64,000 nucleotides of DNA from Microcaecilia unicolor (GCF_901765095.1 NW_021963017.1:238253-302252); one strand, 5' to 3'; positions 6,801 to 62,989 are shown, counted from the first letter of the stretch. Numbers and translations are program-made. Notes: generated from the sequence alone by a model not told the origin.

Positions 6801-8849
6801 TCAGAATGTTGTCTTCAGAACGTTGAGGGTAAGTTTTATTATAGTAGATAGGGCCCTATTCAGTCATAAAGTTTCCCTCCCCTTCTCCTGGAGTTGGGGG
6901 ATACCTTTATATAAGAGCGTGGTAATGATTTGTAAATGAGAACAAACTTGAATATGTTAACAAATGAGCATTCACCCTGATCTTTTTTTTTTTTTTTTTT
7001 AGCTCCAGAAACAAATGTTTTGGGAAATTCATGTTTTGCTGAATAGAAATGGTTGTAAAAGGGCCAGTCTGGGAGCTATTTGGAGTAAACACAAACAGTG
7101 TTAGGCGCAATTAAAAAAAACCCACAAACAAAAAAGCCCAAGGATATCCAAGAGGATGAGCCACCATCGATGCTGTATTAACACTTTCTGCTCAGCACGT
7201 GGACTGGTCCACAAGGGGTGATGGACCCACACACTTAAAACTCTTTTATTCACTACCCCGAATCCTAAAACTCAGATGTATTTTGCATGCATTATTTTGT
7301 GTAAGCCACTTAGTTATAGGCGGGTATAAGCTCTATAAATAAATTTGATCAGGAGTATCTCTGGCAGTTCATGTCCCACATCTGGTGCTGTAGGCTGTAA
7401 GAATGATTTTCTTATTTTATTTTACTTACTCTCATAGCCAAATCAGCAAACCCAGTTTAACAACATAAGAATAGCCATACTGGGTCAGACCAATGGTCCA
7501 TCTAGCCCAGTATCCTGCTTCCAGCAGTGGCCAATCGAGGTCACAAGTACCTGGCAGAAACCCAGTTAGTTGCACCATTCCATGCTACTAATCCCAGGGC
7601 AAGCAATGATTTCCCCCATGTCCATGTCAATAACAGACTGTAGACTTTTCCTCCAGGAACTTGTCCAGCCCTTTTTTTTTTACCCAAATATGCTAACCAC
7701 TGTTACCACATCCTTTGGCAATGAGTCCCAGAGCTTAACTATTCTTTGAGTGAAAAAATATTTTCTCCTATTTATTTTTAAAGTATTTTCATGCAATTTC
7801 ATTGAGTGCCCCTGGTCTTTGTAGTTTTTGAATGAGTGGAAAATCGATTCCTCTCCACCTGCTATGCGAGTTGCGTGCCAGGTTTACATAATACTGCTTA
7901 GAGCCCAGTTGTAACATTCACACGTATAAGTGCTAATATTCTGTAATCTTAGAGCGTAAATGGTGTTTACATTTAGGCACTAAGATTATAGAATGAGGGG
8001 TATAGGGGATTATTTTAGAAGCATCTCCATGCGCAGATAGTGGTATCTGCACATATAGATTGCATACACGTGTAAATGCCAATTTTGGAAAGCTGCTGTT
8101 TCCACGGGGAGGTTTACACAAGGAGGCATAGTCTGGGCATGCCTTGAATGGGATAAAAATCTACACGTGTATTCCCCGTTTTACAAAGGAAATAATGTTT
8201 ATTGGAAAAAATGTCCTGGTTAGGTTTTACACCAGCTCAAAGGCATGCACAGATTTTTAGAAAGCACATGTTTTGGCTTGGGCTTTATACTAGGGATTAA
8301 GAGGGTAATTATTCTCTTTAATGACTTCACTACTTTATGGGCGGTACTCACTGGACAGCTACATGTGGAAGCACCACTATTTCTACATGGAAGTGACAAC
8401 AGTTTTATGTGGAAGCTGCCAGGCTTCTGACGCTTATTTTTTTCCATGTGTAGAATGGCTGCTTTGTCACATCCACGCGCACTCCTGCATGTCCCTATCG
8501 ATATTTTACAAAAGGAGCCTGTCGTTTAACATACTTGTCCTTTTTCTTGTTGTATACTGTTTTCATTTGTGTTTTTGGTTTAAGTTTAAATAAAAACAAC
8601 TTGAAAAAAATAAAGCCTTTGGTAGTATAGCCTTTTGTAAGATACTGCTGAAATTGAACACGACCAAAATTCAGATGCCCTGGTTTGGATCTCAGTGTTC
8701 TGCTGAAATGGGTCTTCAAGCCTCATTTCATTCCCTTCTCATTTAATACTATTACTACAGAGCTGAGCATGCATGCCTCCACCACCCATCTCTTCCTAAT
8801 TCTTTTTTTATTCAGAGGCTTTCACCTCCAACTAAAACTGCTTTGCTTT

Positions 8850-17326: not shown

Positions 17327-17989
17327 GTAAGTGTGTGTTATATCCTGCTACATGGTTTTGTGGGTTTTTTGGTGTTCACGTTCTGTATTCAGTTGGTATT
17401 TCCCCGTTTCCAGAAAGCTTGCAGTCTTTGAGGGGAAATTATCAAAGTGGGTTGTTATCTTACTGTTATCCCAGTTTATTAGTAACTAGGTCTTATTGCA
17501 ATAAAATAGGACCTGTGCTAAAATGAATTAGTGGTAAAATAATCAGAATAAATGGTAACCCACATTGCTAACTTCCCCCATGTACCTGAGGCAATGGAGA
17601 GATAAATGCCTTGCCCAAAGTTACAGATCTGAACCCTGACTGTACTGGTATTCAGCCCACTGCTGTAACCACTAGACTGTCCTTCCACTCTAATGTTTAT
17701 TCAGGCAGGGCCGGTCTTAGCAAGTGCGGGGCCCTGTGCAGACCAATTTGGTGGGGCCCTATCCTAGCCCCGCCCCACCCCAGCTCCACCCCATTGATAA
17801 GATTATTCAATTTTTAGAAAATTTTTTAAGAAATTTCAAATTAAGACAAATGAAGCTAAACTTGTACAGAAAAACTGATTGAAATAATAAGCACAATGCT
17901 ATCATGAACCCCCCCCCCCCCCCCAGAAATTATTCAGTTCAAGTCCACTACAATTAGTAGTTCCAATTCTCATAACCCCGGGGGGGTCA

Positions 17990-18790
17990 GAGGTTCGGAC
18001 ACACAATCTCCTTCTCTGCACATATTCAGAAGACTAATAAAATCTGTTGCTTCTTTCTCTATAATATCAACAAAATTAATACTTTCCTTTCTGAGTACAC
18101 TACAAGAACCCTTATCCACACTCTTATCACCTCTCATGTAGACTATTGCAACTTGCTTCTCACAAGTCTTCCACTAAGCCATCTCTCTCCCCTTCAATCT
18201 GTTCAAAATTCTGCTGCATGACTTATATTCCTCCAGTGTTGCTTGCTATGCTCATATGAGCCCTCTTCTCAAGTCACTTCATTGGCTCCCTATCCATTTC
18301 TGCATACAGTTAAAACTCTTCTTATTGACTTACAAGTGCATTTAATCTGCAGCTCCTCAGTATCTTTCCACTCCTATCTCTCCCTACACTCCTACCTGGA
18401 ATTCTGTTCTCTGGGTAAATCTCTCTTATTTGCGCTCTTCTCCTCCACTGCTAACTCCAGACTCCGTTCCTTTTATTTTGCTGTGCCATATGCTTGGAAT
18501 AGACTTCCTAAGCCGATACGTCAAGCTCCATCTCTGGCCGTCTTCAAATCTAGGCTAAAAGCCCACGTTTTTGATGCTGCAGCTTTTAACTCCTAACCCT
18601 TATTCACTTGTTCAGAACCCATGTTTTATCATTCCCACCTTAGTAATTCCCTTATTTGTCTGTCCTAATTACATTGTAAGCTTTGTCGAACAGGGACTAT
18701 CTCTTCATGTCCAGTGTATAGCGCTGCGTACATATAATAGTGCTATAGAAATGGTAAGTAGTAGTAGTAGATGCTTTTCCTGGGCGGTGA
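17990..18790 (+). repeat. L2-like LINE 3' end nested in the hAT element
   Basis: ORF 18243-18596 ends ...AVPYAWNRLPKPIRQAPSLAVFKSRLKAHVFDAAAFNS (characteristic L2/CR1-type ORF2 C-terminus). The tail gcgctgcgtacatataatagtgctatagaaatggtaagtagtagtagtag recurs reverse-complemented at 55028 and 56215. Confidence 0.5.
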
Positions 18791-19337
18791 CTCCTAGTGT
18801 GGCACCTTGCATCACATAACTATGGTTTGGGTTCCTCTTTCCCACATGCATCACTTTGCACTTGCTCACAATAAATGTCATCTGCCATTTGGATGCCCAG
18901 TCTCCCAATCCCATAAGGGCATCTAGGAGCAAAAGGTGCAAACATAACTATACCTTCTCAAGCCTATGCACCTTCCTGAAAAAAAATGCCCAGTAACAAG
19001 GCAGTTTGTCACACTGTAGGTTAAAAAAAAAAAGCCAAATTTAAGCGCATCATTTATTCTAGATTTCTAAAAGTGTATATTCCACCAGTCTGAAAGTCTA
19101 ATTTTTTTTTAACTTGCAAGAGTCCACCAATGAAAAAAAAGAAAAAGAAAGCAACACCAAAAAATTGCAAATCAAAACATTTGAAGAAACAGAAAAGTCA
19201 ATAGGCTAACAGCAAATTATAACTATGGTATGACTGGTGGGCATAGGATCAGTGGTAATTACACAGCACTAGCCAGTTTTGTTTCAGTGAACCAAGTACA
19301 GCTAAAAAGAACAGTGTGAAGGACTTCTGCTAACTAA

Positions 19338-21003
19338 GGCCCAGATGATCAAAAGCCCTGCGCTGTTCCAAACAGTGCCCTAAAAATAGCGCCGGGACAG
19401 CGCAGGGCTTTTCTGCATCGATGATCAAAGATAATGCATGCAAATCTAAGCAGCGCTATTATCTTTGATTATCATGTTGAAGTGTGGGAGAATTGCACCC
19501 GAGCACGTGCTCAGCACAATCCTCCTGCACTTCTTTGACAGGTCTGGGCTGTCAAAAGCCCAAAACTGTCAAAGTGGCCTGCCGATCCCCCAACAAAGAG
19601 GCCGCCGCCGGCCAAACCGACTCCCCCCCCCCCCCCCAGCGATGGGGGGGGGGGGGGCTGGAGGTCCAGTGGACCTCCGGTCCCCCCGACGACCCCCCCC
19701 CATGTTCACGGAGGGATGGAGATCCGGTGGTTCTCCAGCCCCCCCCCCACGAGCCCCCAGAGGACTTGATTGCCGGCTTTAGAGAAACGCTGCCCTACCC
19801 TCCCATCTGCAACCGGGGGGGGGGGGGGGGGCTGGAGGATCGGTGGGTCTCCAGCCCTCCAAATCCCCAGAAATCGTTGTGATCCACTGGACCTACAGCC
19901 CACCCCAACTCCCCCCCCCCCCGGCGTTCTCCACAAATCCCTGGTGGTCCGTGGTGACACGTAACCCCACCCTCCTCCCTCCCTCCCTCCCGGCCCCCCT
20001 ACCTTTGTTGGAGGAGGGACGCAGCCTGCATGCCTCCCTCCTCTTCCTTTCGACGCCGCTTCAAAATGGCGGCGCCCAGCCCCGCCCATTGCATCCTGGG
20101 ATGTGCTGGGAGGGGCTACATACCATATAAGGGAGCGATTCCCTTACATGGTATGTAGCCCTGCCCAGCGCATCCCAGGATGCAATGGGCGGGGCTGGGC
20201 GCCGCCATTTTGAAGCGACGTCGAAAGGAAGAGGAGGGAGGCATGCAGGCTGCGTCCCTCCTCCAACAAAAGGTAGGTGGGCCAGGAGGGAGGGAGGAGG
20301 GTGGGGTTACGTGTCACCACGGACCACCAGGGATTTGTGGAGAACGCGGGGGGGGGGAGGAGTTGGGGTGGACCTCCAGCCCCACCCCCCTCGTTGGTAG
20401 ATTACAGCCCTTGGCCGGAGGCGGCCACAAGGATTTCTTGGGGTTTGGGGGGCTGGAGGCCCACCGAACCTCCAGCCCCCCCCCCCCCCCCCCCCGGCGC
20501 TGGTGGGAGGGTGGGACAACGCTTGGCCGGAGGCGGCCACGAAGATTTCGGGGGGGTTCGGGGGAGGGTCGAATCGTCGAGGGGGGGGACCGGAGGTCCT
20601 CCGGACCTCCAGTCCCGTGTGCTGTTGCCTTGGGGGGGAACGGGGGCCTGCCAGCATGCAACTGAATGCTGGACAGGGCTCACCATTCCTCCCCAATGAT
20701 CCGCAAAATCTAACGCCAGCTCGGAGCTGGCGTTGATTTTGCTGCGGCCAGCGACCCAATCTTTGGCGCGCTGGTCGCTGATCATTGGGGATGAATGCGT
20801 TAAGCGCCAATTAGCATACGTTTGCAGGCTAATTGCGCTAGAAGCCCTGTTTTGCATGCATTTGCATGCTACTTGCGCTGAGAGCCCTCGAGTGCGCTGT
20901 TTCAGGCGCTCGAGGGCTCTGATCATGGGTCGGCTGCAAACTCTGGTGCTAGTATGGCGTTAACAGCCTCTAGCGCCAGAGTTTGCTTTTGATCATGAGG
21001 GCC
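19338..21003. mobile_element. Harbinger/PIF-like non-autonomous element (MITE) with ~1.2-kb internal palindrome
   Basis: TIRs ggcccagatgatcaaaagc (19338-) and gcttttgatcatgagggcc (-21003), flanked by a TAA/TAA direct repeat (19335-19337, 21004-21006). The interior is an imperfect palindrome centred near 20133 (arms ~19550-20130 and 20135-20700) with long poly-C/G tracts. ORFs 19706-20089(-) and 20185-20400(+) encode the same peptide, confirming the symmetry. Confidence 0.6.
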
Positions 21004-21439
21004 TAAGTGCTCATAATTTCAAGTGCATGTCCTGTGTAGCTCTGTGTGCACTGCACTGACCACACTAGGGGGTCATCAAGGCTTCCCCTTTCTCTATTAT
21101 CTGTAGTTCATTGTTAGGAGGTTCTTTCAGAAAGGCTGCCTGGAGTTAAAGATCAAACAGTTTAGGCAGGCCATCCTGCCTGCTTTGTGCATGCAAAGTC
21201 AGTGAAAATCAGGTAGTTGTGGATCAAAAACACCTCTGCCGCCAAGAATCTCTTTTGTTTAATGAACTCCTGTCAGTCCCCCCCCCCCCCCCCCCCCCGG
21301 ACACTTTCAGTCCCGCCTTTTACTTTAATTGCTTGCGGTCACAAATCCACCTGACTGAGAAGAAGGATTAACATATTCCCTAAGTGTCGGGATAAGCATA
21401 AAGGAATCCTGTGCCGAAGGAATGGATCCTCAGGAGCTT

Positions 21440-21745
21440 AGTCAGGATCGGGAGGCAGGGCTGGTGGTTGGGAGGCAGGGATAGTGCTGGACAGACTTGT
21501 ACGGTCTGTGCCAGAGCCGGTGGTGGGCAGCGGGACTGGTGGTTGGGAGGCGGGGATAGTGCTGGACAGACTTGTACGGTCTGTACCAGAGCCGGTGGTT
21601 GGGAGGCAGGGCTGATGGTTGGGAGGTGAGGATAGTGCTGGGCAGACTTATACGGTCTGTGCCAGAGCCGGTGGTTGGGAGGAGGGGCAGGTGGTTGGGA
21701 GGCGGGGATAGCGCTGGGCAGACTTATACGGTCTGAGCCCTGAAG
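21440..21745. repeat. tandem repeat, ~78-bp unit x ~4
   Basis: Repeating ggatagtgctggacagacttgtacggtctgtgccagagccggtggttgggaggc... units. ORFs 21380-21763(-) and 21411-21629(+) are translations of it. Confidence 0.6.
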
Positions 21746-22189
21746 AGCACAGGTACAAATCAAAGTAGGGTATACACAAAAAGCAGCAAATATGAGTTAT
21801 CTTGTTGGGCAGACTGGATGGACCGTGCAGGTCTTTTTCTGCCGTCATCTACTATGTTACTATGTAACAGCAATGATGCCTTAACTGAAAAGGTGAATAA
21901 ATAAATGTATAGCTATGTTGATGTAAATATGCTTGGGGGGGGGGGGGGTCGTTTTGTTTTTAATTCTTCAACAGGCATTTTTCAGTGGGCGATGTTCTTC
22001 TGCCACATGGTGATCGTGATCTACAGTTTAATTGCCCTGGAGAGGGGGAGGGGGAAGAGACTGCTGTGCTCCAGAGCTGGAAAAAAAGATGGGGGAAGAA
22101 AAGCTAATAATCATAAATACCTGGCTGGCTTGCCTTTGAGTGGCAGTGCAGGAGGCGCACAAACTTGCTCCAGCTGATCAGCTCCGTTC

Positions 22190-22480
22190 CACTTCACTTT
22201 ATTTGAAGTCGACTCACTCACATCAGGCTCACCTCTTTTCCCTTCCCGCTCAGGAAATACGTCATCAGAAGGAAGGCGGGACATTGGGCGGGAAGGGAAA
22301 AGCTGGGTGGGTGAGCCATCACTGCCTGCAACTCTGACTGTCGGGGTTCGTGGCGTCGCTGCAAGCCTGCAATTGTCTGTCGGGTCCGGGGAGAGGCGGG
22401 AGCTGACAGCGGGCTCAGCGGTGAGTGGGCAGGGCACCGGACCGGAGGCAGAAGCGGAGCGGCCGAGCGGGAGCGGGATC
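22190..22480 (+). promoter_or_regulatory. GC-rich promoter/first-exon-like segment carried inside the hAT element
   Basis: GC boxes (gggcgggaag), CRE-like tgacgta, then cagcg|gtgagtggg, which resembles an exon-intron donor. It lies ~150 bp inside the hAT 3' TIR. No coding potential is supported. Confidence 0.25.
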
Positions 22481-23203
22481 AAATCATGATGCGGCGGTGC
22501 AGTCTAAGCGGGGGTCGGTCGGAGAGGCAGAGTTGAGGCGCGCCACGCGGGGCCCCCTTAAGCGCGGGGCCCCCTTAAGCGCGGGGCCCTATGCGGCCGC
22601 CTCGGTTGCCTCTGCCTAAGACCGGCCCTGTATTCAGGCATACTGCTTCCCAGCAAGGGGCAACTTGTGCACTATTCAAGCACTAAGGTAAATGTTTGTT
22701 TTAAGTTAAACTTGTTTATTTTGCCATATCTCCAGAGAGGTATGAAATATATATCCAGGTTTTATCTTCAAAATCACATAAACAATTCTGAAATAAACTT
22801 GCTATGAGTGACGAGAATGATTAGTCAAATCCACTTCCCCAAATCCTCCCACCCCAACATTCCCTTCTTCATTTTACACTTCTAAACTTTTTAACAAGGC
22901 AGTGCACGAACATCAACATCCCCAAAAAGGGGTCCAAACTTTCAAAAATAACTTTTTAGCTATTAATCCTGCTGTTTTTGTTGACATGTACTCCATTTGC
23001 AATAATTCATACATTTGGTTTTGCTATAACACCAGAGTCAGTAGGTAATCGGACACCCATTGTAATAGAATACAGTGCTTTGCTATCAGCACTTTGTGTA
23101 TAAACAGTACATAGGGTCCTGCACCCTTGGGCAGAACCTCCATTTTGTGTAGTAAATTTATCTGTGGGTTCATATATAGCCTCACTCCAATCATGCTACT
23201 TAA

Positions 23204-30779: not shown

Positions 30780-31198
30780 CAGGGCCGCCGAGGGGGGGGG
30801 GGGGGAGCCAGGGGGGACAAAATTCCCCAGGCCCGGGCCTCCAAGGGGGGCCCGGCGCCGCAGTCCCACCCGTCCTCCGTCGCCAACCGTCTGCCACCGG
30901 GCCGGGCCCCCTGCATTGAAATCACAGCGCCTCTCACCTCTGTGTGAAAGCGCAGCAGGGCAGCAGATCGCCTCCCTTCGGGCCTCCTTCCCTCCCTTTG
31001 TCCTGCCCTCGTCTGACGTAACTTCCGCGAGGGCGGGTCACAGGGGGGGAAGGAGGCCTGAAGGGAAGCAATCTGCTGCCTGCAGCACTTTCACATGGAG
31101 GTGAGAGACGTTGTGATTTCAATGCAGGGGATGGGGGTGGGGGCGGGGCCCCAGGGGCAGCCTTGCCCCAGGCCCGGCCCAGTCTCTCAGCGGCCCTG
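30780..31198. mobile_element. hAT-like MITE (~420 bp) with internal palindrome
   Basis: TIRs cagggccgccgag / ctcagcggccctg. Flanking 8-bp direct repeats are cctgtact (30772-30779) and cctgtacg (31199-31206). The interior is a palindrome centred ~31025, with arms 30905-31000 and 31045-31140. Confidence 0.6.
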
Positions 31199-35222: not shown

Positions 35223-36597
35223 AATTTTAGAGTGCTTTATCGGGGAACTAATGCCCCCTACATTCCAAGATATTACTCATGTAGGCAAACGCTATTTAAA
35301 GAAACTAACATTGGTAAAGAGATATCCCCTATGCACATTCCTATCCCCTCCATTAAAACCTGTAAACATACATTCAGCAACATATTCATACAGATTCAAT
35401 GCAATTTTGACCCTTCTTGCCCAGGTTAACAGTACCCTCAACCCTTCTATTTCCCGAGAACTCCTCCCCCTTCCCATGTAACCATTGTAAATCCAGTACA
35501 GGTCCCCTCATCCTTCCTACCTTCCCTCCCCATTCCCCCCCAACCCTAAACTTAACCCAATCCATCTACCCAGGGAACAGACCTGGGGATGGAAGCAAAG
35601 ATCACATTAAGTGCTAGGGACCCCAACCTCCAAATGCAACTGCTTATAGGCTATGTCACCATAATACACTATGTTAAAGCAACTAGTAATATATTTACTC
35701 CTGTACCACACCAACAAATGCAACATGGATTAATCCGCATCAATCAATCTGTTGTTCAATAATGCTGATTTTGCCTCTGTTACAGTCTTGAAAGCTTGCC
35801 ATTGACCTTGAATTGAAACCCTTAATTGTGCTGGATATTGTAAAGCAAAATGAATTCTTTTATAAGAGCTGAGCAGAGAGGATGAAACTGTTGATGCTGC
35901 TTTGTGCGGGGGAGAAATCTTGTAAAATCATCAGTATGTTGCGCCCGTCGTGCATCAGTGAGTCTCTCTGTAATTTAAACCCTCGAAGAATTTCAACTTT
36001 ATGTCTGTAATTCAATATTTTTGCCATAATTACTCTTGGTCAGTTCTGATCCTCCTATCTGCGCCCGACGCAATGTGCCCTTTCCACCACTACCGGGCCC
36101 ATTGTGTCTGTAAGGGCCAATTCCTTAGCCAGCCAAGTCGCTAGGTTCCATTCAGGGAGTTTTTCTGTTAACCCCACTTTCTCCGAGGACAAGCAGGCTG
36201 CTTGTTCTCACTGATGGGTGACGTCCACGGCAGCCCCTCCAATCGGAATCTTCACTAGCAAAGTCCTTTGCTAGCCCTCGCGCGCCCGCGCGCATGCGCG
36301 GCCGTCTTCCCGCCCGAAACCGGCTCGAGCCGGCCAGTCTTCTTTCGTCCGCACTCGGTACGGTTGTGTTTTTCGCCGTGTCGAGCCCCGGAGAGTCGAC
36401 CTCGCGCGTCCTTTGTCTAATCGACGTGTTTTTTCTTCGGAAAATATTAGAATTCGTTCGGGAAGTGCTCCGGAAGCCCCCTTGGGTTTCGTTTTGCCCC
36501 TTCCCGTATTTTCAGTCTTTGCCCCGGTAAGTTTTCTTTCGTCGTCGGGGTAGGCCTCTTTTCGGCCTCGGTCGAGATTTTTCTCCCTCAAAGTTTT

Positions 36598-37722
36598 TTG
36601 GTGCTCATTTTCGTCATTTCGGATTTTGATTTCGCCGGCGTGATTTTTCCGCCCATGACATCGAAGCCTTCCAGCGGCTTCAAGAAGTGCACCCAGTGCG
36701 CCCGGGTTATCTCGCTCACTGACAGGCACGCGTCGTGTCTTCAGTGTCTGGGGGCCGAGCACCGCCCTCAGGCCTGTAGTCTGTGTTCCCTTTTGCAAAG
36801 GCGGACTCAGGTAGCGAGATTGGCCCAGTGGAACGTTTTGTTCTCGGGCTCTTCGTCGGCATCGGCACCGGGGGTATCGTGTACATCGACGTCTTCAGCG
36901 TCCAGAGCTTCATCCTCGGCCGCCAGTGCATCGAGTGCATCGAGGCATCGGCCCTCTGCATCGGCGCCGAGACATCGGATAGCTGCATCGACGTCGGTGG
37001 TACCGGGACCTCGTCTGCTGATGTCGTCGGACGGTGGTGCATCGTCAGGAGTGCAGGTGAGGGCTGTCCATTCCCCTGCTGGTGGCGGTGAGCCTTCGGG
37101 TGGGTCTCCCCCTACCCTGAGGGCTCCTGCGGTACAGCCCCCCCGAGACCGACCTCCTTCGGCCTCGGCCCCGAGGAAGCGACGGCTGGATTCTACGTCC
37201 TCCTCGTCGGTACCGGGAAGCTCCGGTGACATGCTTCGTTCCAAGAAGTTGAAGAAGCATCGTCACCGGTCCCCTTCCCGTGTCGGTACCGAGAGCTCTG
37301 GGTCGCCGAGGGAGTCGGCACCCAGCAGGCATCGGCACCGAGAGGACCGCTCACCCTCTGTTCAGGAGGTGTCGATGCGCTCCACTCTGGACAGCCCGGA
37401 ACAGCCTCCACGCCCGGAACAGGTTCTGACGTCGACGCCTGCATCAACCTCCATGCCTTTCTCTGCAGCCGCTCTGAACGAGAGCCTCCGGGCCGTTCTC
37501 CCAGAGATTCTGGGAGAGCTGTTGCGCCCTACCCCTCCGGTACCGGCGGTGCTTGCGCCACCGGTACCGTCGAGCGTGGCGCCGGCTGGCCCATCGCCCG
37601 AGGTGAGGTCTCCGGCGTCGGTGCTGCGTGCGGTGCCGGCTGCCGTCGCCTCCCAGGAGGGCTCCCCGACTACGTCGGCGGAGGGAGCTTCGCCGATGCG
37701 GGCGAGGGAGTCTACCTCTTGA
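36598..37722 (+). CDS. DIRS ORF1 (gag-like, Cys-rich N-terminus, Ser/Pro-rich)
   Basis: 374-aa ORF. KKCTQCARVISLTDRHASCLQCLGAEHRPQACSLCSLL resembles a zinc-knuckle arrangement. A second ORF at 37768-38904 may be its continuation or a separate ORF1b. Confidence 0.45.
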   Translation: MVLIFVISDFDFAGVIFPPMTSKPSSGFKKCTQCARVISLTDRHASCLQCLGAEHRPQACSLCSLLQRRTQVARLAQWNVLFSGSSSASAPGVSCTSTSSASRASSSAASASSASRHRPSASAPRHRIAASTSVVPGPRLLMSSDGGASSGVQVRAVHSPAGGGEPSGGSPPTLRAPAVQPPRDRPPSASAPRKRRLDSTSSSSVPGSSGDMLRSKKLKKHRHRSPSRVGTESSGSPRESAPSRHRHREDRSPSVQEVSMRSTLDSPEQPPRPEQVLTSTPASTSMPFSAAALNESLRAVLPEILGELLRPTPPVPAVLAPPVPSSVAPAGPSPEVRSPASVLRAVPAAVASQEGSPTTSAEGASPMRARESTS

Positions 37723-38848
37723 CGCCCCCATCGTGGACGTGGCTCCACGGAGTCGAGTTGGGCACGGTTGCAGACACAGGTCCGTGAACTTGTGTCTGAC
37801 ACCGAGGGTGAGGCCTCGTGGGAAGAGGAAGAAGACCCCAGATATTTCTCTGACGAGGAGTCTGAGGGTCTTCCTTCCGATCCTACTCCCTCTCCTGAAA
37901 GACAGCTTTCTCCTCCTGAGAGTCTGTCTTTCGCTTCCTTTGTCCGGGAGATGTCTACGGCCATCCCCTTCCCGGTGGTTGTGGAGGACGAGCCCAGGGC
38001 TGAAATGTTTGAGCTCCTGGACTATCCTTCTCCACCTAAGGAAGCGTCCACTGTTCCCTTGCACCATGTCCTGAAAAAGACATTGCTTGCGAACTGGACA
38101 AAACCATTAACTAACCCCCACATCCCCAAGAAGATCGAGTCCCAGTACCGGATCCATGGGGACCCAGATCTGATGCGCACTCAGTTGCCTCATGATTCTG
38201 GAGTTGTGGATCTGGCCCTAAAGAAGGCTAAGAGTTCTAGGGAGCATGCTTCGGCGCCCCCGGGCAAGGACTCTAGAATCTTAGACTCCTTTGGGAGGAA
38301 GGCCTACCATTCTTCTATGCTCGTGGCCAAAATTCAGTCTTACCAGCTCTACACGAGCATACACATGCGGAACAATGTGCGGCAGTTGGCGGGCTTGGTT
38401 GATGCTCTCCCCCCTGAGCAAGCCAAACCTTTTCAGGAGGTGGTCAGGCAGCTGAAGGCGTGCAGAAAATTCCTGGCCAGAGGGGTGTATGACACCTTTG
38501 ATGTTGCGTCCAGGGCCGCTGCTCAAGGTGTGGTGATGCGCAGGCTCTCATGGCTGCGTGCCTCCGACCTGGAGAATAGAATCCAGCAGCGGATTGCGGA
38601 CTCGCCTTGCCGTGCAGATAACATTTTTGGAGAGAAAGTCGAGCAGGTGGTAGAGCAGCTCCACCAGCGGGACACCGCATTCGACAAGTTCTCCCGCCGG
38701 CAGCCTTCAGCTTCTACCTCTACAGGTAGACGATTTTTCGGGGGAAGGAAGACTGTTCCCTACTCTTCTGGCAAGCGTAGGTACAATCCTCCTTCTCGAC
38801 AGCCTGCGGCCCAGGCTAAGCCCCAGCGCGCTCGCTCTCGTCAGCAGC

Positions 38849-40633
38849 GTGCGACTCAGCAAGGCCCCTCGGCTCCCCAGCAAAAGCAAGGGACGAGCTT
38901 TTGACTGGCTCCAGCAGAGCATAGCCGACATCCAAGTGTCAGTGCCGGGCGACCTGCCAGTCGGAGGGAGGTTGAAAGCTTTTCACCAAAGGTGGCCTCT
39001 CATAACCTCCGATCAGTGGGTTCTGCAAATAGTCCGGCAAGGATACACCCTCAATTTGGCCTCAAAACCTCCAAATTGTCCACCGGGAGCTCAGTCTTAC
39101 AGCTTCCAGCACAAGCAGGTACTTGCAGAGGAACTCTCCGCCCTTCTCAGCGCCAATGCGGTCGAGCCCGTGCCATCCGGGCAAGAAGGGCTGGGATTCT
39201 ATTCCAGGTACTTCCTTGTGGAAAAGAAAACAGGGGGGATGCGTCCCATCCTAGACCTAAGGGCCCTGAACAAATATCTGGTCAAAGAAAAGTTCAGGAT
39301 GCTTTCCCTGGGCACCCTACTTCCCATGATTCAGGAAAACGATTGGCTATGCTCTCTGGACTTGAAGGATGCCTACACACACATCCCGATACTGCCAGCT
39401 CACAGACAGTATCTGTGATTTCAGCTGGGCACACGTCACTTCCAGTACTGTGTGCTACCCTTTGGGCTCGCCTCTGCGCCCAGGGTGTTCACAAAGTGCT
39501 TGGCTGTAGTAGCAGCAGCACTTCGCAGGCTGGGAGTGCACGTGTTCCCATATCTCGACGATTGGCTGGTGAAGAACACGTCCGAGGCAGGAGCCCTGCA
39601 GATCACAGCTCGGCAGATGTTGAGATTGCTGGGCCACATGGCCTCCACAGTTCATGTGACTCCCATGGCCCGCCTTCACATGAGGTCTGCTCAATGGACC
39701 CTAGCTTCCCAGTGGTTTCAGGCTGCTGGGGATCTAGAAGACGTGATCCACCTGTCCACGAGTTTTCTCGAATCCCTGTATTGGTGGACGATTTGGTCCA
39801 ATTTGACTCTGGGACATCCTTTCCAAATTCCTCAGCCACAAAAAGTGCTGACCACGGATGCGTCTCTCCTGGGATGGGGAGCTCATGTCGATGGGCTTCA
39901 CACCCAAGGAAGCTGGTCCCTCCAGGAACGCGATCTACAGATCAATCTTCTGGAGTTGCGAGCGATCTGGAACGCTCTGAAGGCTTTCAGAGATCGGCTG
40001 TCCCACCAAATTATCCAAATTCAGACAGACAACCAGGTTGCCATGTACTACGTCAACAAGCAGGGGGGCACTGGATCTCGCCCCCTGTGTCAGGAAGCCG
40101 TCAGCATGTGGCTCTGGGCTCGCCGTCACGGCATGGTGCTCCAAGCCACATATCTGGCAGGCGTAAACAACAGTCTGGCCAACAGGTTGAGCAGGATTAT
40201 GCAACCTCACGAGTGGTCGCTCAACTCCCGAGTGGTGCGCCAGATCTTCCAAGCGTGGGGCACCCCCTTGGTGGATCTCTTCGCATCTCGAGCCAACCAC
40301 AAAGTCCCTCAGTTCTGTTCCAGGCTTCAGGCCCACGGCAGACTGGCATCGGATGCCTTCCTCCTGGATTGGGGGGAGGGCCTGCTGTATGCTTATCCTC
40401 CCATACCTCTGGTGGGGAAGACTTTGTTGAAACTCAAGCAAGACCGAGGCACCATGATTCTGATTGCTCCTTTTTGGCCGCGTCAGATCTGGTTCCCTCT
40501 TCTTCTGGAGTTATCCTCCGAAGAACCGTGGAGATTGGAGTGTTTTCCGACCCTCATCACGCAGGACGAAGGGGCTCTTCTGCATCCCAGCCTCCGGTCC
40601 CTGGCTCTCACGGCCTGGATGTTGAGAGCGTAG
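38849..40633 (+). pseudogene. DIRS pol (RT-RNaseH-MT-like) with a single in-frame stop
   Basis: YSRYFLVEKKTGGMRPILDLRALNKYL, DLKDAYTHIPI, VLPFGLASAPRVFTK, FPYLDDWLV (RT), then a TDASLLGWGA RNase H and a methyltransferase-like region. The TGA at 39416-39418 is the only interruption (HRQYL*FQLGTRHFQY). Confidence 0.75.
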
Positions 40634-41669
40634 ACTTTGCCTCTTTGGGTCTGTCAGAGGGTGTCTCCCGCATCTTGCTTGCTTCCAGGAAAGATTCCAC
40701 TAAGAGGAGTTACTTCTTTCTGTGGAGGAGGTTTGCCGTCTGGTGTGACAGCAAGGCCCTAGATCCTCGCTCTTGTCCTACACAGACCCTGCTTGAATAC
40801 CTTCTGCACTTGTCTGAGTCTGGCCTCAAGACCAACTCTGTAAGGGTTCACCTTAGTGCAATCAGTGCATACCATTACCATATGGAAGGTAAGCCGATCT
40901 CAGGACAGCCTTTAGTTGTTTGCTTCATGAGAGGTTTGCTTTTGTCAAAGCCCCCTGTCAAGCCTCCTACAGTGTCATGGGATCTCAATGTCGTTCTCAC
41001 CCAGCTGATGAAACCTCCTTTTGAGCCACTGAACTCCTGCCATCTGAAGTACTTGACCTGGAAGGTCATTTTCTTGGTGGCAGTTACTTCAGCTCGTAGA
41101 GTCAGTGAGCTTCAGGCCCTGGTAGCCCAGGCCCCTTACACCAAATTTCATCATAACAGAGTAGTCCTCCGCACTCACCCTAAGTTCCTGCCAAAGGTCG
41201 TGTCGGAGTTCCATCTGAACCAGTCAATTGTCTTGCCAACATTTTTTCCCCGTCCTCATTCCTGCCCTGCTGAACGTCGCTGCACACATTGGACTGCAAG
41301 AGAGCATTGGCCTTCTATCTGGAGCGGACACAGCCCAACAGACAGTCCGCCCAATTGTTTGTTTCTTTTGATCCCAATAGGAGGGGAGTGGCTGTGGGGA
41401 AACGCACCATATCCAATTGGCTAGCAGATTGCATTTCCTTCACTTACGCCCAGGCGGGGCTGGCTCTTGAGGGTCATGTCACGGCTCATAATGTTAGAGC
41501 CATGGCTGCGTCGGTAGCCCACTTGAAGTCAGCCTCCATTGAAGAAATTTGCAAAGCTGCGACGTGGTCATCTGTCCACACATTCACATCTCATTACTGC
41601 CTGCAGCAGGATACCCGACGCGACAGTCGGTTCGGGCAGTCAGTTCTTCAGAACCTGTTTGGGCTTTAG
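40560..41669 (+). pseudogene. DIRS tyrosine recombinase (YR), one frameshift
   Basis: SLGLSEGVSRILLASRKDSTKRSYFFLWRRF..., ...FLVAVTSARRVSELQAL..., then the C-terminal ...EEICKAATWSSVHTFTSHYCL in the frame of ORF 41289-41669. Only the C-terminal ~270 aa of the 810-aa ORF 38992-41424 is genuine coding; the N-terminal part is an out-of-frame overlap with pol. Confidence 0.65.
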
Positions 41670-42754
41670 GATCCAACTCCACCCCCCGAGGGCCCTGTTT
41701 GTTCTGTTCCAGGCTGCACTCTCAGTTAGTTGGTAAATTTTTTTAGGTCAATCTCAGTTATGTCCTCGCCGTTGCGAGGCCCAATTGACCATGGTTGTTG
41801 TTTTGAGTGAGCCTGGGGGCTAGGGATACCCCATCAGTGAGAACAAGCAGCCTGCTTGTCCTCGGAGAAAGCGAATGCTACATACCTGTAGAAGGTATTC
41901 TCCGAGGACAGCAGGCTGATTGTTCTCACAAACCCGCCCGCCTCCCCTTTGGAGTTGTGTCTTCCCTTCTCTTGTCTTGCTACATATGAAACTGGCCGGC
42001 TCGAGCCGGTTTCGGGCGGGAAGACGGCCGCGCATGTGCGGTGCGCGCAGGCGCGCGAGGGCTAGCAAAGGACTTTGCTAGTGAAGATTCCGATTGGAGG
42101 GGCTGCCGTGGACGTCACCCATCAGTGAGAACAATCAGCCTGCTGTCCTCGGAGAATACCTTCGGTATACGCAAGTTGTTCCTGTGGGAGCGGTTTTCAA
42201 GATCTTCCAGTTTGTTCATTTGTTCCTTTAGCTGCTGATTTAGACACACTATGTCTGGGCCGTACACGTGGGAGTCATCCTCCAGAGCCGAAACCCTGGC
42301 TTCTAAGTCCCCCGTGCGGGTCCCCAAACCGTCCAGCATCGTTTGAAACAAATCCAGTTTTTGATCCATCATTTCCCACTTCTGCTCCCAGGCTTTCTCT
42401 ACTGCCGATGTTAGCTGCAGGAGCTGGGTGTCAGTAAAGGCCGGTGGCGGCAAGGGAGGATCCTTCGCCATGTTGGCCTCCACACTGCCAGGCTTACTTT
42501 TTTCTTTAACAGCCTTATGCGCATCCCAGCAGGCAATTTGTTCAAATGTTTGTCCATAAAGAAATGTCCCACCACCATCCAGCACCAAACAAAGATATAG
42601 TGCAGCAGTTAAGATGATATGGATGCGAGGGCCCCAGAGCTTCAGCAAGATGCTGCTGTTCAGCTCATAGCAGCACGTGATGTTCTGCATATTTTATAAA
42701 ATACACATGTACATTACAATTTCAGCTCCTCTTCATTCCAAACTATGCCTGCGA

Positions 42755-51906: not shown

Positions 51907-53500
<1,594 letters not shown>

Positions 53501-56214: not shown

Positions 56215-57100
56215 TAAGCTACTACTATTTAGCATTTCTATAGCGCTACAAGGCGTACGCAGCGCTGCACAAACATAGAAGAAAGTCCCTGCTCAAAGAG
56301 CTTACAATCTAATAGCCAAAAAATAAAAATAAAGTAAGCAAATCAAATCAATTAATGTGAACGGGAAGGAAGAGAGGAGGGTAGGTGGAGGCGAGTGGTT
56401 ACAAGTGGTTAAGAGTCAAAAGCAATGTTAAAGAGGTGGGCTTTCAGTCTAGATTTATAGGTGGCCAAGGATGGGGCAAGACGTAGGGGCTCAGGAAGTT
56501 TATTCCAGGCACAGGGTGCAGCGAGACAGCGCGAAGTCTGGAGTTGGCAGTAGTGGAGAAGGGAACAGATAAGAAGGATTTATCCATGGAGCGGAGTGCA
56601 CGGGAAGGGGTGTAGGGAAGGACGAGTGTGGAGAGATACTGGGGAGCAGCAGAGTGAGTACATTTATAGGTTAGTAGAAGAAGTTTGAACAGGATGCGAA
56701 AACGGATAGGGAGCCAGTGAAGGGTCTTGAGGAGAGGGGTAGTATGAGTAAAGCGACCCTGGCGGAAGTTGAAGATGTTTAGTAAGGTGAGGCTCTTTGT
56801 GCTTGGAGAGGATTTTCATTTGTTTGGTCAGAGTATGATGTTGAGTGATTATTCTAACTCGTTGTACCTAGGATGTTGATTGGTTTAGATTATTCTAACT
56901 CGTTGTACCTAGGATTTCCTGCTGGATGGATAAAGGCCTTGCAGGTAATACAAAATGTTCTCCATGATATGATCATGTGTTGCCATTGTTCAGCTGCATT
57001 GACTTCTTGTGGAAGCTAGGATACAGTTTAGCCTTTCAGTAGATTAACAATGTGTTCTGGCATGCATATGCTGCTTACCTGACAGGTGCTCTGCACATTT
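56215..57100 (-). repeat. L2-type 3' region (reverse orientation)
   Basis: It begins ctactactatttagcatttctatagcgctacaaggcgtacgcagcgctgcaca...cttacaatcta (the same tail family) and continues ~800 bp. Confidence 0.4.
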
Positions 57101-57149
57101 ATACACCTGCAAGGTGATTGAGGTCTGAGGGGGCAGTATTGTTATCCAT

Positions 57150-59750
57150 CCCTAATTTGGCTAGGGTACGTTTTGAGGAGGCTCGGAAGAGTTCCTTATG
57201 TTTGGCAAGACCTGTGATATACAATCGGCTGTTCCATAGCGTCCCACAGATCAATCCAGAGACTTGTGGGTTGCGTCCCTCTACCAGCAGGTTGGAATTG
57301 GTTCGTCCGATAGTAGACTCGTTTCTGGAATCTCCTTGCAAATCTCCCGCCAAGGTGTGGGCAGTTCGTCACACCCTCCTCAACTTACAACAACTGGGAG
57401 CTGTCCAGCCTGTACTCCCAGCAGAAAGAGGGTGCGGTCGATACTCCATTTATTTTGTGATGCCAAAAAAGGGCGGTTCTTGGCGACCTGTCCTAGATCT
57501 CAAGTGCTTCAACAGGTCCTTATGGGTTCGGCATTTCCGCATGGAAACCCTCCGCTCGGTGATCGCAGCGGTACAGCCAGGAGAGTTTTTGACATCTCTC
57601 GATCTCAAAGAGGCCTATTTACACATTCCAATTTGGCCTCTCCACAGTCGTTTTCTTCGCTTTGCAGTGCTCTGTCGTCATTTTCAATTCAAAGCGATGC
57701 CCTTCGGCCTAGCCACAGCACTTTGGACTTTTGGAAAAGTCCTTTCTGAGATAGGCCGCCACTTCGACAAGGACCTTGGAAAAAGTGGCGGCCTATCTCA
57801 GAAAGGAAGGGATTCAAGTCCATCCTTATCTAGATGACTGGCTTGTGCGGGCGTCTTCTTTCGAGGAGATTCAATGGGCAACCAACAGAGTGGTCAGGTT
57901 GCTTCAGTTGCTTGGTTGCGTGATCAACTTCCCAAAGTGCAGCCTTACGCCTTCCCAGACGCTGGAATACTTGGGAGTGTACTTCGATACCCGAACAGAG
58001 ATAGTTTCTCTTCCTTCAGCTTGAGCGCAGCGGTTGCAGGGTCAGTTGCGAGCTCTGTTCCAAACTCCGAACCCGCAGACTTGGGACTATGTACAAGTTC
58101 TGGGTTCCATGGCCTTCACCTTGGACGTCGTAAAGTGGGCCAGAGCTCACATGCGCCCCCTGCAGTGGCACCTTCTGAGCCATTGGTCTCCTCTCTGGGA
58201 GGATTACGAGGTTCAGGTGCCATATTCGACCCGTCTGCACACAATCATGCACTTGTGGTTCATTCAAAAGAATCTGGTGTCGGGCATTTTTCTGCAAACC
58301 CCAGAATGGAAGATCGTGACCACAGATGCGTTGTTGTCTGTTTGGGGGGCTCATTGCCTCCAACAGACGGCCTAGGGCATTTGGACCTCGACGGAGGCGT
58401 CTTGGTCCATCAACCGCTTGGAGTTGTAGGCGATTCGTCTGGCCCTTCGGGAGTTACTGTCTCTTCTGCGTGGTTGCCCAGTTCGAGTTCTCTCGGATAA
58501 TGTGACGGCGGTCGCCTACGTAAACCGTCGGGGACACCGGGTGTGCACCACTAGCTTGCGATGCAGCCCTGATTTGCCATTGGGCAGAGACTCATCTCTC
58601 TCTCTTGACGGCGGCTCATATAGCGGGGTAGAGAATATGCAAGCGGACTTTCTCAGTCGCCACCAGTTGGAGCCGGGGGAGTGGACACTCTTCCCTCTGG
58701 CCTTAGATCAGATAGCTTCACGTTGGGGGATGCCGGTGATGGACTTAATGGCCACCACATTCAATGCAAAGTTTCCCCGTTTCTTCAGCAGAGGAAGATA
58801 GCTGGGCTCAGAAGGCATCCATGCTCTTCTACAACCTTAGCCCAGGGGCCTGCTCTATGCCTTTTCCTCTGGCCTATAGTGGGCAGGTTACTGACTCACA
58901 TTGCCAGTCATTCCGGTCAAGTGATCCTGGTGGCCCCAGATTGGCCCAAACGTCCCTGGTAAGTTGATATGGTCAGGCTCCTGTTCGATCGTCCGCTCCG
59001 GCTCCAGGCGCAGGATGGTCTCTTGCTGCAGGGACCAGTCATGATGGAGGATCCCTCCCCCTTTGGTCTTACGGCCTGGCCCTTGAAAGGGCGAAGTTGA
59101 GAAGGAAAGGATATCTGGATGTGGTTATCGCTACGAAGCTTCAGGCTCGGAAAAGATCCACCTCGATAGCTTATGCTAGGGTGTGGCATACTTTCGATTC
59201 ATTGTGTGCAAGTTCGGGATTGTCAACGGCTTTGGCTTCGGTATCGGTTATCCTCGTATTTCTTCAGGATGGTGTACAGAAATCATTCTCATTGAGTTCT
59301 CTTAAGGTGCAGGTGGCAGCTCTGGCATGCTTTAGAGGCCAACTTCAGGGGGTGTCGATCGCCTCCCACCCGGATGTGGTTCGTTTTTTGAGGGGCGTAA
59401 ATTGGTTGCGTCCTCCGCATGTGCCAGTTCTGCCATCCTGGAACCTTAATCTAGTTCTCAAAGCGCTTCAGCGTCCTCCTTTCGAACCCTTATGGGGATT
59501 ACGGTTAAGGATTTTACCTTGAAGGCAATTTTCCTAGTAGCCGTTACTTCAGCTCGGAGAATTTCAGAGTTGCAGGCTCTTTCTTGCAGAGACCCCTTCC
59601 TGCGTTTTACAGAGGCAGGAGTATCGATTAGGACAGTTCTTTCGTTTTTGCCCAAGGTGGTTTCTTGTTTCCATTTGGGGCAGTCTCTGTATTTGCCGAC
59701 TTTTCGCCGGGAAGACGTGGGATGTACCCAAGTAGTCCTCAAGTAGGGCG
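57150..59750 (+). mobile_element. DIRS-like retrotransposon copy 2 (gag-less, frameshifted, 3'-truncated)
   Basis: RT (57118-57837: YSIYFVMPKKGGSWRPVLDLKCF, LDLKEAYLHIPIW, AMPFGLATALWTF; 57776-58024: HPYLDDWLV), RNase H (58034-58375: TTDALLSVWGAH), a methyltransferase-like region (58502-58962), the YR N-terminal domain (59097-59522) and the YR core (59492-59746: FLVAVTSARRISELQAL) occur in several frames. No ITRs were identified. Confidence 0.7.
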
Positions 59751-61560: not shown

Positions 61561-62989
61561 ACAGGAAGAGAAGCCACACGCTTCTTAACTCGGATGAGGG
61601 GCGCATGAAAGAGTATCAGCTGCAAAGCATGCTTCCTTTACAGAGAAGCACGGTGTCAGCACGAACATGGCTAAAAAATGACTTTCTTGCAGCATGTGAA
61701 GCCAGAAAAAAGGTTGAGAAGCCGTGCGCTTCTTAAAGGCAATGCGACATAATTGGGGGGGGGGGGGGCTTTGTTGGATATGTCGGATGGTCGGATTTCC
61801 AAAGAATGGATAATCGAGACTGTATCTTGGTTTGTACAGACTCAAAGCTAATGATCAGATCCTGCTGATTTAAAAAAAACCATGATTCTGTTCACAGAAA
61901 GTGTACTTCTACCTGTGGCAAAAAAGGGGTGAGGTTAGGTTAGGGGAGAGAAGGTACATGTTGGGATTTCATTTGAAACCCCTTCATGTAATCTCTGCAT
62001 GTACATTTACACTTGCTTCAAAGCAGGTATAGAGGTATTTGAGTATTAAGTAGCCTTTGTGCACCATGACCCAGTTTTCAAAGGAAAATCCTATAAGGAA
62101 TTTCCCTTTGAAAACTGGCTTGTAACTACAGATACATAATACCCACAGATCAGCAACATAGCCATTCTAAAAATTGCCTCAATATTAAATTATGGAAACA
62201 GTTTTCAAAGACATAAATGGGTGTTTACCAATGAAAAAATCTAGGCTTTGCAAAAAAAGAAGGAAGCTGAAGCAGGCTGCTCCTTCTCAGCCCAGTCAAC
62301 TGAAACATATGAATACAGCCAGTTGGTTTTCCAACATATACCCTGCCGGCCCTGTTAGGTCATGATTACTTTCTTCAAGATTGACAGAAAACAGATGCTT
62401 TGTGCTCAGTATTATGATATCTGGATTTCACCTCAGATTTCTACTTATTCCACCTGAAAGACCCTTGCCATGTCTCAAGTACTATAGGCCCTCATCCACC
62501 TACTTCAGAAAGTTATTAAACTATTAGAAACCAATACAATCAGTAGAACTCATGCCAATACAAGAGAATTAAAGAAAGCCTATATGCATATATCAGTTTA
62601 TTCCATTGGCAGGATGTTCTTAATTTCATCCTACAAATAACCATTTCCTCAGCGACCCTCCAGACCGGTCAAGACGCGTGGGTTATGTCCTCCTACCAGC
62701 AGAGGGAGACTGAGAAAACACTAAGCTTTTGAAGCCTGTATATATAACCTGTGCAGAACCTCCACTAGCCAGTATTTTCTCAGTCTCAGCAGAGGTAGCA
62801 GTTGACAGCCTGTGCAGTCTCCAATAGTCTGGTGAGGTAGTTTGTCATTGGGTCGTAGGACTTTTTCCTTCCAAACTTTATTCTGTTGCAGTACCCTGTA
62901 CGTGTGTGTAAAAAAAAAAAAAAAAAAGTGCTTTGGGGCCCTGGATCCGGTGGGGCCCAGTTTTTCCCCCTGGGGTGTTACACCTATGT

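Follow-up and report, generated by a model that had tools for sequence, protein, structure and literature searches.

Introduction

Non-autonomous hAT transposons, such as the Ds-type derivatives and the hAT miniature inverted-repeat transposable elements (MITEs), are characterised by terminal inverted repeats (TIRs), an 8-bp duplication of the target site, and the lack of a transposase. They have two unlike subterminal regions with short repeated motifs, they are mobilised in trans, and they derive from elements whose transposase carries a hAT dimerisation domain at its C-terminus. The TIRs of hAT elements are short and start with the sequence YARNG. Here we describe an element that resembles the Ds-type derivatives and hAT MITEs in these features, including a short TIR that starts from CAGGG and, presumably, mobilisation in trans. 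It lies in a 64-kb stretch of DNA from Microcaecilia unicolor (GCF_901765095.1, NW_021963017.1:238253-302252), the whole of which is called the window below. An earlier reading made from the sequence alone (the sequence-only reading) had described a hAT-like element here, and had suggested that a GC-rich segment near its right end is a captured host promoter and first exon. We conclude with considerable confidence that positions 17706-22630 are a single insertion of a non-autonomous hAT DNA transposon, lying inverted in the window with its 5' end on the right.

Results and discussion

Boundaries and coding capacity

The element and its borders are as follows.

17698-17705: left 8-bp target-site duplication, TATTCAGG, identical to 22631-22638
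17706-22630, inverted in the window: hAT element of 4925 bp, bounded by TIRs and an 8-bp duplication
17706-17720, plus strand: TIR CAGGGCCGGTCTTAG at the 3' (type-A) end, one of two exact copies in the window
22616-22630, minus strand: TIR at the 5' end, exact reverse complement of the left TIR CAGGGCCGGTCTTAG
22631-22638: right 8-bp target-site duplication, TATTCAGG, identical to 17698-17705

The two TIRs are complementary at 15 of 15 positions and start with YARNG, and the only two exact copies of the repeat in the window are the two termini of the element. The sequence TATTCAGG is found directly outside each TIR as a direct repeat, which excludes a palindromic extension of the TIRs. As a control for chance, the window was simulated 40 times with a first-order Markov model. 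The feature scanned for in each simulation was an exact inverted repeat, 12 bp or longer and spanning no more than 20 kb, with an exact 8-bp direct repeat on its flanks. None of the 40 simulated windows contained such a structure. In the real window, the other matches of the same scan were all palindromic extensions of long inverted repeats of Tc1-like and DIRS-like elements. The perfect 15-bp TIRs and exact 8-bp duplication described in the sequence-only reading are thus real, with its boundaries (17709-22632) needing correction by 3 bases on the left and 2 bases on the right.

The flanks of the element (17600-17705 and 22639-22690, minus strand) resemble, and may be, one continuous MIR-type short interspersed element (SINE), in which case the hAT would have landed within a SINE older than itself. 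The 64-kb window was searched for a paralogous site lacking the insertion, and for a second copy of the flanking sequence spanning the insertion junction, and neither was found.

No transposase domain was found in the element when a six-frame translation with stops masked was compared to Pfam at E <= 1, and a tblastn search with a related hAT transposase gave no match inside 17706-22630, in agreement with the sequence-only reading. Together with the match of both ends to family profiles, described below, this identifies the element as non-autonomous. There is no hAT transposase elsewhere in the window either, which is otherwise repeat-rich animal DNA. A 'CERVFS' peptide at about 46331 was considered as a hAT relic and dropped, its surroundings being AT-rich and nondescript.

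Two different end modules

Beyond the shared 15-bp TIR, the two ends of the element differ, each having a module of its own.

17706-17762, plus strand: type-A (3') end module, consisting of the TIR, CAAGTGCGGGGCCC and a second GGGGCCC 25 bp further inward
22546-22589: subterminal 17-bp tandem repeat, CGCGGGGCCCCCTTAAG x 2.6, 100% matches
22560-22630, minus strand (read inward): type-B (5') end module, profile match E = 3e-10

The first 29 bp of the left end are identical in more than 20 independent loci elsewhere. The right end, read inward, has the TIR followed by GGCAGAGG...CATAGGGCCCCGCGC and then the 17-bp unit, and its motif GGGCCCCGCGC..AAGGGGGCCCCGCGCT is common, nearly base for base, to copies in other hosts. 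In its general layout, the type-B module has GGC next to the TIR and then, across a spacer of some 25 nt, two or three copies of GGGGGCCCCGCGCTTAA. Profiles of the two end types were built without the window copy. The left end (17706-17762) matches the type-A profile with E = 4.3e-13 and the right end matches the type-B profile at the value listed, while cross-matches between the types are confined to the 15-bp TIR. The motif GCGGGGCCC is found five times in the window, always subterminally in hAT-like elements: four times in the element studied here, and once in a 419-bp MITE at 30780-31198.

It is worth adding that AAGTGCTTTGGGGCCCTGGATCCGGTGGGGCCC, at 62925-62965 following a poly-A run, resembles the type-A pair AAGTGCGGGGCCCTG...GGTGGGGCCC. 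At this position there is no TIR and no match to the end profiles of the family.

Copies of the family elsewhere

Public metagenome contigs were scanned for the TIR followed by 5 to 30 unspecified bases and GGGCCC (TIR + N{5,30} + GGGCCC). This gave 53 contigs, representing about 28 distinct loci, whose content is eukaryotic (a reverse transcriptase of a long interspersed element (LINE), a Ras-family exon, and open reading frames (ORFs) for EF-hand proteins). The bases left free in the pattern are also conserved among these loci. More than 20 of them read CAGGGCCGGTCTTAGCAAGTGCGGGGCCC, an exact match to the left end in the window, and many of these carry a second GCGGGGCCCC with the same spacing as in the window. 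A second class of loci has the TIR followed by GGC(C)... and GGGCCCCGCGC, resembling the right end in the window. Seven copies are complete and have a perfect 8-bp duplication (L001, 1897 bp; L004, 2165 bp; L010, 418 bp; L011, 926 bp; L014, 1837 bp; L026, 337 bp; L029, 1958 bp), and in six further copies the duplication matches at 7 of 8 positions. Each complete copy has one end of each class. By its own account, the sequence-only reading would have been refuted had the TIR and the duplication not recurred in other copies; in the metagenome they do recur together.

Viral contigs scanned with the TIR pattern gave nothing. Among bacterial and archaeal genomes there was a single match, in a metagenome-assembled genome, which has no similarity outside the pattern and is attributed to chance. 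A literature search for the TIR string gave one relevant result, a table of Pilosella and Taraxacum elements (PMC10485273), discussed below.

Relation to a hAT transposase and orientation of the element

None of the metagenome copies contains a long ORF. Peptide relics in single copies (L014, L024, L029 and L052) have only sub-threshold matches in Pfam (E = 0.01-0.1). In L024, the family homology ends about 240 bp from the end, so that the Dimer_Tnp_hAT-like relic of this locus is not assignable to the TIR-bearing copy. Both were set aside. A consensus was made by aligning the homologous internal segment of five to six metagenome copies, and this restores an open frame ending in ...TSFPNLFIALRIYMTIPVTVASGKRSFSKLKVIKTYLRSSIQQERLNSLAIISIESEISRGLNLDKILKNFANGKEQK and a stop codon (and including FPNLFIALRIYMTIPVTVASGKRSFSKLKVIKTYLRSSIQQERLNSLAIISIE). 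The consensus peptide matches the Pfam domain Dimer_Tnp_hAT (PF05699) with E = 6.5e-13 and 48.7 bits, the cut-off being 21.4. The TIRs enclose this ORF in every copy, and it is directed toward the CAAGTGCGGGGCCC end. When the consensus peptide was compared to protein sequences, 116 proteins matched, nearly all annotated with PF05699; the best of them belong to Araneus ventricosus, a spider (83% identity), and Sinanodonta woodiana, a mussel (73%).

In S. woodiana there is a 3,060-bp element (L055:5531-8590; CM100989.1, about 96,575,839-96,578,898) with a perfect 8-bp duplication, GCGCTATA (L055:5523-5530 and 8591-8598). Its type-B end, CAGGGCTGGCCTTAGGCCGA...GGGCCCCGTGC...GGGCCCCGCGC, lies upstream of a transposase gene, with the ATG about 260 bp from the 5' end. 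The transposase ORFs are frameshifted; their N-terminus resembles a zinc finger and is followed by DUF4371 and Dimer_Tnp_hAT. A type-A end, CAGGGCCGGCCTTAGAAATTGCGGGGCCC..., closes the element and is followed by GCGCTATA again. In A. ventricosus, contig BGPR01077500.1 contains most of the same DUF4371 and hAT-dimerisation transposase, with a type-A end 915 bp downstream of the transposase stop. The ends that bound the window copy therefore recur around a hAT transposase gene in the mussel and downstream of one in the spider, and the hAT dimerisation domain, absent from the window copy itself, is found in relatives that share both of its ends. Given the mussel and spider transposases and the consensus domain, the hAT assignment proposed by the sequence-only reading has now been tested, and is more than a conclusion drawn from repeats.

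In these relatives the transposase gene is oriented with its start toward the B end and its stop toward the A end. As judged from this comparison, the window copy lies inverted, its left end being the 3' end and its right end the 5' end, and an ancestral transposase gene would have been encoded on the window's minus strand.

Some further observations were made in the course of these searches. The spider flank adjoining the type-A end (L057:2518-2527) reads GCGCTATATA, in the opposite relative orientation to the mussel GCGCTATA; the likeness may be a coincidence or a common target preference. A fish locus (L056, Phoxinus) was rejected as a relative, having a C-terminal relic only and no recognisable TIR. 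C-terminal hAT relics are also found outside TIR-bounded copies, at about 4770 in L003 and about 7707 in L052, both on the plus strand (..PASVEAERAFS.. and ..TTCTAECSFNGLRKMTTYLRNTM..), implying that the metagenome hosts hold several hAT lineages.

Proposed history of the element

We propose that a transposase of the DUF4371 and hAT-dimerisation type, supplied in trans, moved this non-coding element. The transposase presumably recognises the TIRs together with the subterminal repeats containing GGGGCCC, these being its predicted binding sites. By analogy with established hAT biology, excision would proceed through double-strand breaks. The element would then be reinserted where the target had been cut with ends staggered by 8 bp, and repair of this stagger would generate the TATTCAGG duplication. 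The present copy has the appearance of an immobile fossil, broken up by other repeats.

Nested repeats

The interior of the element is occupied largely by the following repeats.

18000 (approximate)-18775, plus strand: 5'-truncated L2-like LINE 3' fragment (C-terminus of ORF2, 3' untranslated region and (TAG)n tail)
18780-18941, minus strand: short LINE reverse-transcriptase-like fragment, with an ORF at 18705-18941 (minus strand)
19338-21003: Harbinger-like MITE of 1666 bp, with TIRs GGCCCAGATGATCAAAAGC and GGCCCTCATGATCAAAAGC matching at 17 of 19 positions
19741-20568: long palindromic core of this MITE, aligning with its own reverse complement over 784 columns at 87% identity
21450-21739: minisatellite of 76 bp x 3.8, 88% matches, inside a repeat at about 21380-21868

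The LINE fragment is dispersed: its segments 18228-18767 and 18504-18775 align at about 69% with two further copies within the window. We take it to be L2 from a motif in the C-terminus of ORF2. Similarly, the fragment at 18780-18941 is assumed to resemble the C-terminus of a CR1/L2 reverse transcriptase; it has no match in Pfam. The Harbinger-like MITE has a TAA duplication at 19335-19337 and 21004-21006 (flanks ...ctaacTAA and TAAgtg), and thus has the 3-bp TWA duplication and TIRs of PIF/Harbinger elements, without a transposase. The nested LINE 3' piece, Harbinger-like MITE and minisatellite of the sequence-only reading are therefore borne out by the dispersed copies, the TIRs with TAA and the tandem structure respectively.

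Taken together, other repeats make up about 63% of the element and leave about 1.8 kb, which is within the size range of the non-autonomous copies elsewhere. It is plausible, as the sequence-only reading has it, that the hAT predates the nested insertions, and some of the cargo could have travelled with it in the last transposition. The target duplication is perfect, yet the LINE piece is old (69%), and later insertion and carried cargo are for this reason not separable.

At the centre of the MITE palindrome (20059-20215), AAAATGGCGGCGC, CCCCGCCC and CATTGCATCCTGGGA are found in both orientations. These presumably resemble promoter motifs of the YY1, Sp1 and ZNF143 types, and on this likeness the centre of the palindrome would resemble a promoter more than the GC-rich block described next. 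Runs of C or G, 14-23 bases long, are found at or near repeat junctions (17908-17925, 19625-19657, 19817-19832, 20476-20497, 21278-21300 and 21936-21950). Possible causes are repeat tails, polymerase slippage or an assembly artefact.

The GC-rich right arm

The right arm of the element is rich in GC and CpG. At 22190-22480 the GC content is 0.62 and the CpG observed/expected ratio (o/e) is 0.78, and at 22481-22630 these are 0.70 and 0.93, the whole-window figure for comparison being 0.46. If GC > 0.55 and CpG o/e > 0.6 across 200-500 bp or more are taken to mark a CpG island, the whole of 22190-22630 (GC 0.62-0.70, CpG o/e 0.78-0.93) is island-like in its composition. Its outer part of about 85 bp (22546-22630) is the CG-rich 5' subterminal repeat module that is conserved in the family. 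The inner part is listed here with the hairpin that it contains.

22190-22545: inner GC/CpG-rich block, peculiar to this copy among everything searched
22226-22317: 92-nt imperfect inverted repeat (hairpin), with ACGTCA and GC-box motifs in its loop

No relative of the inner block, about 350 bp, was found in the window, among the family copies of other hosts or in the 5' part of the mussel element. A 123-amino-acid ORF across the GC block had no match in the protein collection, a search that is powerless here because host ORFs are absent from that collection (11 ORFs of the window were checked). The block contains GC-box, CCAAT and ACGTCA motifs and the hexamer GTGAGT at 22421. Counting both strands, the window has 21 occurrences of this hexamer, and equally good donor-like sites, AG/GTGAGC and AT/GTGAGT, are present on the minus strand of the block. 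No convincing coding exon was seen downstream of the donor at 22421. The donor and the GC-box and cAMP-response-element (CRE) motifs are no commoner than chance. The segment with GC-box and CRE motifs and a splice donor that the sequence-only reading placed at 22190-22480 is thus real in its GC richness and its GTGAGT, while its motifs are within chance.

The hairpin has a predicted free energy of -28.7 kcal/mol (z = -6.6), and none of 200 shuffled sequences was equally stable. Scans with Rfam and for tRNAs gave only sub-threshold matches to hairpin-type microRNA models, and no tRNA. The hairpin is bordered by ATCA on each side (22222-22321, ...cacATCA/GGCTCACC...GGTGAGCC/ATCActg); this may be accidental, or may mark the place where a tiny palindrome was inserted. 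The core of the MITE at 30780-31198 has a similar-looking hairpin with a CT arm, ACGTCA and a GC box, and a kinship with the GC block was considered and rejected, the score being 26 compared to a null of 22 +/- 2.5.

Alternative explanations

Several points weigh against a single hAT insertion as described here. There is no second copy of the family in the window; the metagenome, mussel and spider copies share with the window copy only about 57 bp on the left and 70 bp on the right; and the inner GC block has no similarity to the mussel 5' region, its proposed origin in a leader being drawn from its position only. The target consensuses of hAT elements are nTnnnnAn for the Ac family and nnnTAnnn for the Buster family, and the duplications of the present family fit neither: in a small sample of about 15, T is found at position 2 in six and A at position 7 in three or four, and TA at positions 4-5 in none. 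This misfit, and the fact that a TIR and an 8-bp duplication by themselves fail to separate superfamilies, are in keeping with the element belonging to another superfamily with 8-bp duplications, such as the P elements or Mutator-like elements. Such an assignment is nevertheless most improbable, because elements with the same two end modules carry a DUF4371 and Dimer_Tnp_hAT transposase in the mussel and spider, and the consensus of the degenerate copies restores a hAT dimerisation domain (E = 6.5e-13). The single copy in the window is likewise the one point in favour of a chance pairing of an inverted repeat with a flanking direct repeat that are not one mobile unit. This is effectively refuted by the simulations, none of which had such a structure, and by the two ends, each of which matches an independent family profile well past the TIR.

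The insertion of a non-autonomous hAT element being thus preferred, the explanations that differ for its inner GC block can be compared. The position of the block, at the 5' end and where the autonomous relative has its 5' leader (the mussel ATG being about 260 bp from the 5' end), suggests that the inner 350 bp are left over from the leader or promoter region of the parental element, and we consider the chances of this roughly even. The sequence-only reading had offered a 5' remnant of the transposase gene as its second choice, which agrees with this position and fails in the strand that it named. Its first choice was transduplication, with 22190-22480 being a host promoter and non-coding first exon taken up by the hAT. 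The CpG-island-like composition of the block (GC 0.62, CpG o/e 0.78, window 0.46), its promoter-like motifs with the GTGAGT at 22421, and its absence from family copies in other hosts are in keeping with capture. However, the outer part of the arm consists of the family's own 5' repeats, with no visible boundary between these and the block; the proposed plus-strand exon and its donor face outward, antisense to the ancestral transposase gene; and the motifs are within chance, the hexamer being frequent in the window and matched by donor-like sites on the other strand. The block also occupies the place of the leader, and no parental copy or paralogue was found, a result that carries no weight given the protein collection used. 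Capture of a host first exon is accordingly doubtful, and we regard it as quite unlikely. The block, or the 92-nt hairpin core within it, might instead derive from an unrelated repeat of which a fragment was inserted close to the 5' end, or from a small palindromic MITE. The strength of the inverted repeat (z = -6.6), the ATCA on either side of it, and the fact that nested repeats already make up about 63% of the element fit such an origin, whereas the 4-bp flank match is expected by chance about once in 256 and was chosen post hoc, the window has no further copy, and the similarity to the hAT-like MITE at 30780-31198 is non-significant (26 compared to 22 +/- 2.5); we consider it unlikely. Finally, the CpG-rich 5' arm (22190-22630) might be kept unmethylated as a transposon-derived and possibly bidirectional promoter, with outward plus-strand transcripts using the GT at 22421 and so giving a host or non-coding transcript a transposon-born first exon. 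This is speculative and we think it very unlikely.

Other elements in the window

The MITE at 30780-31198 (419 bp) is a second hAT-like element, with TIRs CAGGGCCGCCGAGGG and CAGGGCCGCTGAGAG matching at 13 of 15 positions and an 8-bp duplication, CCTGTACT and CCTGTACG, matching at 7 of 8. GGGGCCC motifs are found close to each of its ends, one of them being part of GCGGGGCCC at 31143, and its core is palindromic and contains TGACGTAA as well as a GC box. The first nine bases of its TIR are common to the element studied here, the internal similarity being non-significant. At 52262-53284 (plus strand) there is an apparently intact ORF of 340 amino acids resembling Tc1/Sleeping Beauty (HTH_SB, HTH_Tnp_Tc3_2 and DDE_3), flanked by inverted repeats near 52086 and 53320; this copy could be young or active. 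Two DIRS-like retroelements, at about 36299-42030 and 57100-59600, have gag-like, reverse transcriptase/RNase H and recombinase-like ORFs. The first of these has inverted termini at 36299 and 42030 and contains the strongest CpG-island-like stretch of the window, at 36.1-39.1 kb. The window also contains a pogo-like DDE_1 ORF and LINE reverse transcriptases.

Comparison with known systems

The element is an ordinary dead non-autonomous hAT copy of a known type. It differs from the Ds-type derivatives and hAT MITEs in being unusually long (4.9 kb), about 63% of this being later or carried repeats, and in retaining no coding relic. With Pack-MULEs, and the rarer captures of gene fragments by hAT elements, it shares an internal GC-rich segment between its TIRs that does not look like a transposon. 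Transduplicating transposons are, however, defined by the presence elsewhere of the parental host gene fragment, which for the window element was not found in a search that was powerless to find it.

Among plant elements, MITEs located upstream of PAR alleles of Pilosella and Taraxacum have been assigned to hAT on the basis of their target duplication (PMC10485273, Table 5). They are about 1.3 kb long and have the TIRs CAGGGCCGGTCC... and CAGGGCCGGCCA, which are identical to the window TIR at 11 of 12 and 10 of 12 positions respectively, the comparison being of TIR strings only.

On its own the element has little significance, being one decayed cut-and-paste copy in repeat-rich animal DNA. It is now possible to orient it and to name its functional end modules, and any claim of a promoter, exon or capture in the GC-rich arm must be weighed against the transposon's own 5' end. 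The closest systems are the 3,060-bp mussel element and the spider contig BGPR01077500.1. The mussel and spider carry a DUF4371 and Dimer_Tnp_hAT gene (frameshifted in the mussel), whereas the window copy carries none, and the internal sequences are unrelated. All three have the same TIR core, CAGGGC[CT]GG[CT]CTTAG, the same type-B 5' module, GGC...GGGCCCCG[CT]GC...GGGCCCCGCGC, and the same type-A 3' module, ..TGCGGGGCCC...GCGGGG, and the mussel element has an 8-bp duplication as the window copy does. The end modules are thus nearly base-for-base alike across a vertebrate-type genome, a mussel, a spider and the eukaryotes of the metagenome, a modest curiosity that may reflect either constraint or horizontal spread. 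The exact identity of 29 bp at the 3' end between this vertebrate-type genome and many copies in invertebrate-type hosts could mean that the autonomous element has spread horizontally, and that constraint is not the whole explanation. In either case, the two end modules that the window copy shares with these distant relatives provide a handy signature with which to find and orient further members of the family.

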